Shown: in pieces, positions 4,310-5,559 of the stretch
Layout: the number at the start of each line of letters is the position of its first letter
How positions within the stretch are numbered: position 1 is the first letter of the stretch
From: a virus
Taxonomy: Duplodnaviria; Heunggongvirae; Uroviricota; Caudoviricetes
Reading direction: 5' to 3' (one strand)
DNA length: 7,870 nucleotides
Virus record (IMG/VR): IMGVR_UViG_3300029490_000143
Notes under the pieces: model-generated
Database searches by the model: none
What the model saw: the letters and a program-made list of their open reading frames with translations, nothing else
What the model was told of the DNA's origin: nothing
Position numbers and translations under genes: made by a program

Positions 4310-4600
4310 ATGGCTGATTTGAGAAAAGCAGCGCGTGGTCGGGAATGCCAGGTAAGAATCCCTGGCGTATGTAATGGCAATTCTGAGACGTCTGTACTGG
4401 CACATATCCGGCTGGCTGGATTGTGCGGTACCGGTATCAAACCGCCAGACCTGATTGCCACCATTGCATGTTCTGCCTGCCACGACGAAATCGACCGCCG
4501 CACACATTTTGTCGATGCTGCATATGCAAAAGAATGCGCGCTGGAAGGTATGGCGAGAACACAGGTTATCTGGCTGAAAGAGGGGGTTATTAAGGCGTGA
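4310..4600 (+). CDS. ybcO: YbcO-like nin-region protein (DUF1364, Cys-rich putative nuclease)
   Basis: ATG at 4310 preceded by GGAGG (4301-4305) gives a 96-aa protein [24 protein letters not shown]...[12 protein letters not shown]. The longer track ORF from 4118 is an unsupported N-terminal extension. The protein resembles DLP12 YbcO as I recall it, and its stop overlaps the rusA start. Confidence 0.8.
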
Positions 4601-4959
4601 ATACCTACAGCATCACATTACCCTGGCCTCCGAGCAATAATCGCTATTACCGCCATAATCGCGGACGCACGCACATCAGCGCAGAGGGGCAGGCATACCG
4701 CGATAACGTCGCCCGAATCATTAAAAACGCAATGCTAGATATCGGCCTGGCTATGCCTGTGAAAATCCGCATTGAGTGCCACATGCCGGATCGCCGTCGC
4801 CGTGACCTGGATAATCTGCAAAAAGCCGCTTTTGACGCACTCACTAAAGCAGGTTTCTGGCTGGATGATGCTCAGGTCGTTGATTACCGCGTTGTGAAGA
4901 TGCCTGTTACCAAAGGTGGGAGGCTGGAACTGACCATCACCGAAATGGGGAATGAATGA
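4597..4959 (+). CDS. rusA: Holliday junction resolvase RusA
   Basis: 120-aa [28 protein letters not shown]...[54 protein letters not shown], recognised as RusA. Its GTG start overlaps the ybcO stop (GTGA), suggesting translational coupling. Confidence 0.9.
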
Positions 4960-5096
4960 TGTTTGAGTTTAATATGGCAGAACTTCTTCGCCACCGCTGG
5001 GGGCGTCTGCGCTTATATCGTTTCCCCGGTTCTGTTTTGACCGATTACCGAATACTGAAGAATTACGCCAAAACACTGACAGGAGCAGGAGTATGA
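4956..5096 (+). CDS. ylcG: Small nin-region protein, YlcG-like (46 aa)
   Basis: Hand translation from the ATG at 4956, which overlaps the rusA TGA, gives [46 protein letters not shown] and a TGA at 5094-5096. It is below the ORF-track size cutoff. Its position between rusA and Q matches ylcG in DLP12-like prophages. Confidence 0.55.
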
Positions 5097-5181
5097 AGTC
5101 AGAGATAACAATCAACTAATACTGTTTTGTTGATTTTTGCTTGTAATTGGCGTTCTGGTCTGAGTTTTGTGGAGTAAGTTG

Positions 5182-5559
5182 ATGCGTGATATTCAGATGG
5201 TTCTTGAGCGTTGGGGAGCGTGGGCGGCTAATAATCATGAAGATGTGACCTGGTCGTCCATTGCCGCCGGTTTTAAGGGATTAATTCCTTCAAAAGTAAA
5301 ATCTCGCCCACAATGTTGTGACGATGACGCGATGATCATTTGCGGGTGCATGGCCCGTCTGAAAAAGAACAACAGCGATTTGCATGATTTATTGGTGGAC
5401 TATTATGTCGGCGGCATGACTTTTATGGCGCTTGCACGTAAGCATGGGCGATCTGATTGTTGGGTTGGCAGGATGCTTCAGAAAGCTGAGGGCGTAGTGG
5501 AGGGTATGCTGATGGTGTTGGATCTCCGATTGGAGATGGATGCTGATTGTTCGAAATAA
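5182..5559 (+). CDS. quuD: Late-gene antiterminator Q (phage 82 / DLP12 QuuD type)
   Basis: ATG at 5182 with GGAG 7 nt upstream; the track's start at 5167 is a TTG in the same frame. The 125-aa protein [24 protein letters not shown]... has a Cys cluster [12 protein letters not shown] and lies downstream of rusA/ylcG. Confidence 0.85.

Follow-up and report, generated by a model that had tools for sequence, protein, structure and literature searches.

An intact ybcO-rusA-ylcG-Q module in a lambdoid prophage, very probably deprived of its phage promoter through a recent deletion private to the strain

The 7,870-nucleotide (nt) IMG/VR virus record IMGVR_UViG_3300029490_000143, the whole of which we refer to as the window, carries a compact block of four genes, ybcO, rusA, ylcG and Q. 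Our analysis makes it very probable that this block is an ordinary module of a lambdoid prophage, intact in itself, which a recent deletion private to the strain has severed from the phage promoter. In every feature that could be tested, the block is the known ybcO-rusA-ylcG-Q module, already described and with nothing new in it; the change upstream of it is a recent microhomology deletion private to the strain. This deletion and two insertion sequence (IS) insertions are the only strain-specific content of the window and represent ordinary prophage decay: the proteins are identical or near-identical to characterised ones, and the module is a textbook one found in most E. coli genomes. The positions of all features are collected in Table 1.

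Results

A private deletion upstream of the block

Upstream of ybcO, DNA from the xis side of the prophage is fused at a 4-bp microhomology to the 3′ end of ninE. The prophage of E. coli XJ5.2 (NZ_CP074354.1) retains the DNA between the two arms, with flanks reading ...GCATGTGCTA/TCTGCG... and ...ATACCGCTA/GCCTGG...; compared with it, 2097 bp are missing from the window, and the early region of XJ5.2 is itself already shortened and carries an IS1. Relatives carry immunity, replication and nin genes in the region deleted here, and, measured against fuller prophages at att-lambda, the deleted DNA would comprise genes for recombination, immunity and replication as well as nin genes. Judging from lambda biology, the PR promoter would also have lain within it.

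The junction was absent from all complete E. coli genomes searched (0/5426), from the GTDB species representatives (two scans) and from a metagenome collection (one scan), and none of ten other att-lambda contexts retrieved through YbhC had the structure of the window. To the right of the junction, window positions 4261–5640 are identical to the XJ5.2 prophage at 1380/1380 positions and window positions 6961–7194 at 234/234, and the left arm is 99.8% identical to E. coli TOK-001. The events that shaped the window appear to be very recent, because there is zero divergence from the undeleted XJ5.2 prophage, the target duplication of the IS256-family element downstream of Q is intact, and the junction is private.

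The initial annotation had observed that the upstream context differs from that in K-12, and had offered two explanations for the retention of rusA and Q, selection on these genes or a recent deletion. The first observation is explained by the junction at 4261–4264, and the second of the two explanations is borne out by the microhomology, by the perfect identity of the right arm to an undeleted relative and by the privacy of the junction. The accompanying remark that no lysis or structural genes are in view proved to be an effect of the window edge: in relatives the lysis genes lie ~3.1 kb past Q (measured to the start of the holin gene), and here a 1320-bp IS and an IS2 have been added. The lack of late genes in view carries no information, because such genes would fall outside the window even if present.

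Identity and intactness of the four genes

Profile searches for DUF1364, RusA and Q all matched, and frameshifts or premature stops were seen in none of the four genes. The names ybcO, rusA, ylcG and Q given in the initial annotation hold at its coordinates, each gene being full length and assigned to its family by profile.

The ybcO product scores 138.7 bits against PF07102 (cut-off 29.9) and falls into phrog_131, HNH endonuclease. It is identical at 92 of 96 residues to the solved K-12 protein (PDB 3G27), and none of the four substitutions (0/4) falls on a Cys or His. The DUF1364 group has been classed as His-Me finger, with a function that is only hypothesised there (PMC5714182); we describe YbcO as a putative nuclease. 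The ybcO frame is open upstream to a TTG at 4118, giving a mechanical open reading frame (ORF) of 160 aa (4118–4600) that crosses the deletion junction, and automatic annotation could yield an N-terminally extended YbcO, as in the 112-aa version of TOK-001. The 96-aa form is favoured because AAGGAGG stands 5 nt 5′ of the ATG at 4310.

The sequence identifies the second gene as one that encodes the RusA Holliday junction resolvase. Its product scores 82.1 bits against PF05866 (cut-off 22.8) and 279.7 bits against NF007305 (cut-off 200), the latter spanning residues 1–120 of 120; PHROGs assigns it as RusA-like resolvase. It differs from the solved protein (PDB 1Q8R) at a single position, V27I (119/120 identical), and the residues reported as critical for RusA (R69, D70, D72, N73, K76, D90 and D91; PMC1636454) are all kept, as counted on the translation.

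YlcG is identical to its K-12 counterpart at 46 of 46 residues and scores 77.2 bits against NF033498 (cut-off 30); it belongs to phrog_2705, a family of unknown function, and found no match in the local Pfam copy.

Q scores 173.2 bits against PF06530 (cut-off 26), spanning 1–118 of 118, a family given for the Q21/Q933W antiterminators (bioRxiv 10.1101/651190); it falls into phrog_79, anti-termination protein Q-like. The protein is identical to Q of phage IdasGreatGrand (125/125) and shares 106/127 residues with K-12 QuuD. Its sole solved relative is Q21 (PDB 6P18; E = 1.9e-8), with similarity restricted to residues 8–90.

DNA similar to window positions 4261–5648 is present in 4172 of the 5426 complete E. 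coli genomes, reaching 80% coverage or more in 2386, and in 73 phage records; a single E. coli genome has up to 5 places matching the ybcO-Q block. Gene order, gene lengths, overlaps and spacer are common to K-12 DLP12, TOK-001, XJ5.2 and phage IdasGreatGrand.

Signals for expression of the block

The genes neighbouring the block upstream, xis and int, face away from it, and a consensus scan of the plus strand upstream of ybcO found no sigma-70-like promoter. A relaxed scan of the same DNA returned one hexamer pair, an 8-of-12 match with 15 nt between its hexamers and an overlap with the start codon.

The rusA gene of K-12 has been described as quiescent unless IS2 or IS10 inserts upstream (PMC1636454). 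The initial annotation regarded it as simply cryptic, which is now dated: a 2026 report (PMC12844172) describes binding of the LysR-type regulator HusR (YnfL) near rusA and HusR-dependent expression of rusA-ylcG, whose mRNA the regulator raises more than five-fold in stationary phase. Both boxes listed there for K-12 rusA recur exactly in the window (Table 1). The HusR consensus, CnGnnnAnnTnnnCnG, matched the window at chance level only, and at neither of the rusA boxes, and was discarded as a guide. We regard HusR control of the block, which is suggested by the sequence, as a lead rather than a result. Most likely, the block would be largely silent from the phage side, like rusA of K-12, with at most HusR-dependent expression of rusA-ylcG in stationary phase.

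Overlaps and translational coupling

The initial annotation had described four genes packed by overlapping stop and start signals into a co-translated unit. The two overlaps that it named can be read directly from the sequence: GTGA between ybcO and rusA (4597–4600) and ATGA between rusA and ylcG (4956–4959), each of 4 nt. An additional overlap lies upstream, where the stop codon of truncated ninE runs over the ybcO start (ATGGCTGA, 4310–4317, 8 nt). At all three places the stop/start overlap is accompanied by a Shine-Dalgarno-like sequence, whereas ylcG and Q are separated by an 85-nt gap, and a separate GGAG stands 8 nt 5′ of the Q ATG. The description thus stands for ybcO-rusA-ylcG, for which the 4-nt overlaps and the Shine-Dalgarno-like purine runs make translational coupling plausible, and fails for Q, which is set apart by the gap. 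A terminator in the ylcG-Q spacer was considered and dropped, as the spacer folds no better than its shuffles (z = +1.1).

Overlaps of 4 nt between stop and start codons are the commonest overlap class of bacterial operons, so the tight packing is normal for a phage early operon. Moreover, identical overlaps are annotated in K-12, TOK-001, XJ5.2 and phage IdasGreatGrand; therefore, they are an inherited trait of the module and not a peculiarity of the window.

Insertion sequences and terminator downstream of Q

The standard Q cassette consists of the Q gene, a promoter, a pause element and a terminator, followed by the late genes (bioRxiv 10.1101/651190). In the DNA after Q, neither PR′, nor a sigma-dependent pause element, nor Q-binding repeats were identifiable by consensus, and a relaxed scan gave sub-optimal hexamer pairs only. 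The pair TTGGAA/TATAAC was rejected as a confident call for PR′, its spacing being 15 or 20 nt.

The IS256-family element that follows is flanked by an intact 8-bp target duplication, CATATAAC (5633–5640 and 6961–6968), and once the element and one of the two duplicate copies are removed, the sequence is exactly that of XJ5.2. In the sequence so restored, the strong terminator at 6986–7014 lies ~100 nt past the Q stop; the element now separates the two. We infer that it splits the loading site of Q from its terminator. The same terminator points towards the end of the lipocalin gene, which runs in the opposite direction.

Among E. coli chromosomes, the IS256-family element is rare: an identical copy was found in 1/5426 complete genomes (strain S43), and the next-best chromosomal match is ~77%. 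It is 100% identical to plasmid copies from Enterobacter, Citrobacter and E. coli, and 99.5% identical to copies on Acinetobacter plasmids. These matches suggest that it arrived recently and was plasmid-borne.

The lipocalin gene is a moron between Q and the lysis genes; it is intact in relatives, where it encodes 174 aa, and is cut here by the IS2. The truncated ORF (7043–7231) had no exact-protein match in a look-up.

Prophage setting

The int and xis genes, the att core and ybhC occur together in the window, and relatives show the same arrangement; the prophage is of lambdoid type, at att-lambda beside ybhC. Its left junction carries the 15-bp sequence GCTTTTTTATACTAA, which we take to be the lambda att core. 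The int-xis arm beside ybhC is shared by several complete E. coli genomes, and the counterpart of the integrase in relatives is annotated as tyrosine recombinase. The ybhJ-ybhC intergenic region contains a direct repeat of ~93 nt with ~91% identity (1269–1463), which resembles tandem REP/BIME-type elements; XJ5.2 has one unit fewer. A scan of the whole window against Rfam gave zero families at threshold.

Table 1. Positions, strands and supporting evidence of the features in the window
Feature	Position	Strand	Evidence
ybhJ, 3′ part	16–1245	+	ORF list, profile searches
ybhC	1479–2762	−	ORF list, profile searches
Putative lambda att core, 15 bp; prophage left junction adjoining ybhC	2809–2823	+	Exact match, 0 expected by chance
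Lambda-type integrase (int)	2897–3967	−	PF00589, E = 2e-40; PF09003 arm-binding domain, E = 7e-33
Excisionase (xis)	3945–4163	−	PF07825, E = 4e-41
Intrinsic-terminator-like hairpin with T-run, just 5′ of the block; reads weakly on the plus strand too	4194–4213	−	Terminator scan
Deletion junction, 4-bp microhomology GCTA; small gene adjoining xis fused to ninE 3′ end	4261–4264		Left arm matches relatives to 4264, right arm from 4261 (BLAST)
ninE 3′ remnant, last 57 nt; TGA stop overlaps the ybcO start	4261–4317	+	Alignment to locus L002 (ninE annotated at 9155–9325)
ybcO, DUF1364/His-Me-finger putative nuclease, 96 aa, intact	4310–4600	+	PF07102, E = 6e-41
Exact copy of one of the two HusR boxes given for K-12 rusA	4349–4364	+	Exact match; box in PMC12844172, Table 1
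rusA, Holliday junction resolvase, 120 aa, GTG start	4597–4959	+	PF05866, E = 6e-23; NF007305, E = 3e-84
Exact copy of the other HusR box given for K-12 rusA	4700–4715	−	Exact match; PMC12844172
ylcG, small protein, 46 aa	4956–5096	+	NF033498 YlcG, E = 6e-22
ylcG-Q non-coding spacer, 85 nt	5097–5181	+	Identical spacer length annotated in relatives
Q, late-gene antiterminator of Q21/Q933W family, 125 aa, intact	5182–5559	+	PF06530, E = 2e-51
DNA directly 3′ of Q; expected place of PR′ and Q-binding site	5560–5640	+	Position relative to Q, per cassette in bioRxiv 10.1101/651190
IS256-family insertion sequence, 1320 bp	5641–6960	−	NF033543, E = 1e-130; terminal inverted repeats
Strong intrinsic terminator, 9-bp stem and T7; candidate tR′ of the Q cassette	6986–7014	+	Fold −19.1 kcal/mol, z = −4.4, 0/200 shuffles as good
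Lipocalin (Blc-like), phage-borne, 3′ fragment cut by IS2	7043–7194	−	PF08212; NF007786; alignment to locus L002 ends at 7194
IS2, partial, running off the window end	7195–7870	−	96.2% identical to annotated TOK-001 IS2; rve domains

Discussion

Proposed working and orphaning of the module

In an active lambdoid phage, the nin segment is transcribed from PR under N antitermination. We propose that ybcO-rusA-ylcG-Q formed the distal part of such a delayed-early rightward (nin) operon in a lambdoid prophage at att-lambda: ninE, ybcO, rusA and ylcG would probably be translated through termination-reinitiation and Q from its own ribosome-binding site; RusA would tidy branched phage DNA; and Q would join RNA polymerase a short way past the Q gene and let it run through the terminator that precedes the lysis and structural genes. 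Three recent events have orphaned the module in this strain. A microhomology deletion joined xis-side DNA to the end of ninE, with loss of the early region and, presumably, of PR; an IS256-family element entered between Q and the next terminator; and an IS2 entered the next gene after Q, the lipocalin gene.

Several points weigh against this account of a module that is intact and cut off. Upstream of ybcO, a promoter that is weak or of a non-sigma-70 type could escape a consensus scan; PR′ and the Q-binding element, between which and the terminator the IS256-family element would have come to lie, were not located by consensus; and the HusR boxes are MEME-derived motifs from one paper rather than footprints, and misfit the printed consensus.

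In a further reading, which we estimate to be unlikely, the orphaned block is not dead cargo: rusA-ylcG would be expressed in stationary phase under HusR alone, and Q, retained but without its target, could act in trans on other Q21-family prophages in the genome. If this were true, the strain would have a reserve resolvase for Holliday junctions that is wired into host control. The HusR report implies that expression of rusA-ylcG does not depend on phage promoters; the window could provide a natural test of this, although K-12 already allows the same test.

Recent decay and the alternatives to it

The evidence supports very recent decay of the prophage over selection on the genes of the block. 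Selection was the other explanation in the initial annotation, and it can be stated as domestication: under selection, the host would retain rusA as a spare Holliday junction resolvase, perhaps along with Q, as the other prophage DNA decays. The block does persist in DLP12, the defective prophage of K-12, and most E. coli genomes have it; activation of rusA-ylcG by a host regulator, HusR, has been reported (PMC12844172), and the window retains the boxes of this regulator; and the ratio of nonsynonymous to synonymous changes (pN/pS) is below 1 for ybcO, rusA and Q, ranging from 0.06 to 0.37 against K-12, TOK-001 and IdasGreatGrand in the comparisons with enough differences. These ratios show that the ybcO, rusA and Q families are under purifying selection in general. 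However, they compare phage and prophage lineages, including viable phages that carry the same genes, and the nearest relative is 100% identical, and we rejected them as a sign of selection at the window locus. The identity of 1380/1380 to a prophage that still has its late genes (two of them annotated as pseudogenes) leaves no time for selection at this locus, the junction is private to the strain, and the window ends inside an IS2, short of where late genes would lie. Taken together, we consider domestication quite improbable.

A second alternative is that the deletion gave the block a new promoter and created a natural activation allele, with constitutive RusA as in the laboratory suppressors rus-1 and rus-2. 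The upstream context has truly been replaced, and K-12 rusA is switched on by upstream rearrangements involving IS2 and IS10 (PMC1636454). However, no IS lies upstream of the block; the sole upstream hexamer pair is the imperfect, short-spaced one that sits on the start codon; and xis and int face away, separated from the block by a hairpin whose tail is T-rich. These points make an activation allele very improbable indeed. Faulty assembly as the source of the xis/ninE junction, through chimeric joining in a genome with many IS elements and several prophages, is hardly credible: the junction is seen nowhere else, and the multiple ybcO-Q-like places in E. coli genomes can confuse assemblers, but genuine illegitimate recombination typically leaves a clean join at a microhomology such as the 4 bp seen here, misassembly usually occurs across long repeats, of which there is none at 4261–4264, and both arms belong to one prophage type in relatives.

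Comparison with known systems

The nearest relative is the lambda-like prophage at att-lambda in XJ5.2, which shares with the window the int and xis genes beside ybhC as well as the lipocalin gene past Q. Beyond the identical block, it continues with lipocalin, ybgA-like and helix-turn-helix (HTH) genes, essD, rrrD, a lysis protein, terminase, portal, capsid and a full tail set, to ybhB and bioA; its portal and large-terminase genes are annotated as pseudogenes. XJ5.2 and phage IdasGreatGrand (PP925829.1) differ from the window in having kept ybcN and ninE on the upstream side and, on the downstream side, ybgA-like, HTH, holin, endolysin and spanin genes; neither has the deletion or the insertions of the IS256-family element and the IS2. 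XJ5.2 keeps head and tail genes as well.

The block also reproduces ninE-ybcO-rusA-ylcG-quuD of the K-12 prophage DLP12 in gene order, gene lengths, overlaps (8, 4 and 4 nt) and the 85-nt ylcG-Q spacer, with YbcO identical at 92/96, RusA at 119/120 and YlcG at 46/46 residues. The two differ in location, the window prophage being at att-lambda beside ybhC and DLP12 at another site, argU. They differ further in Q, which is another allele here (106/127 identical; 125 vs. 127 aa), with DNA similarity that stops before the Q stop codon, and in the upstream DNA, since the window lacks ybcN and most of ninE and has xis 147 nt upstream of the block. In K-12, rusA is normally quiescent (PMC1636454), and the window block is likewise without a PR-side promoter.

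Like the Q21 cassette, the window has a Q protein that falls in PF06530 and aligns to Q21, and, before the insertion, a strong terminator ~100 nt after the Q stop codon; unlike it, the window cassette is interrupted by a 1320-bp IS, and the similarity to Q21 covers only residues 8–90.

The alleles rus-1 (IS2) and rus-2 (IS10) of K-12 resemble the window in that DNA upstream of the same rusA gene is rearranged. They carry an IS with an outward promoter, whereas in the window a deletion has brought in divergent xis DNA in which no promoter can be recognised; as there is no IS on the upstream side, the window block is not an activated allele of the rus type. A natural arrangement that does resemble the laboratory rus-1 allele occurs in TOK-001 (locus L001, 9816–11146), where an IS2 stands immediately upstream of ybcO-rusA in a prophage of the same type at att-lambda.

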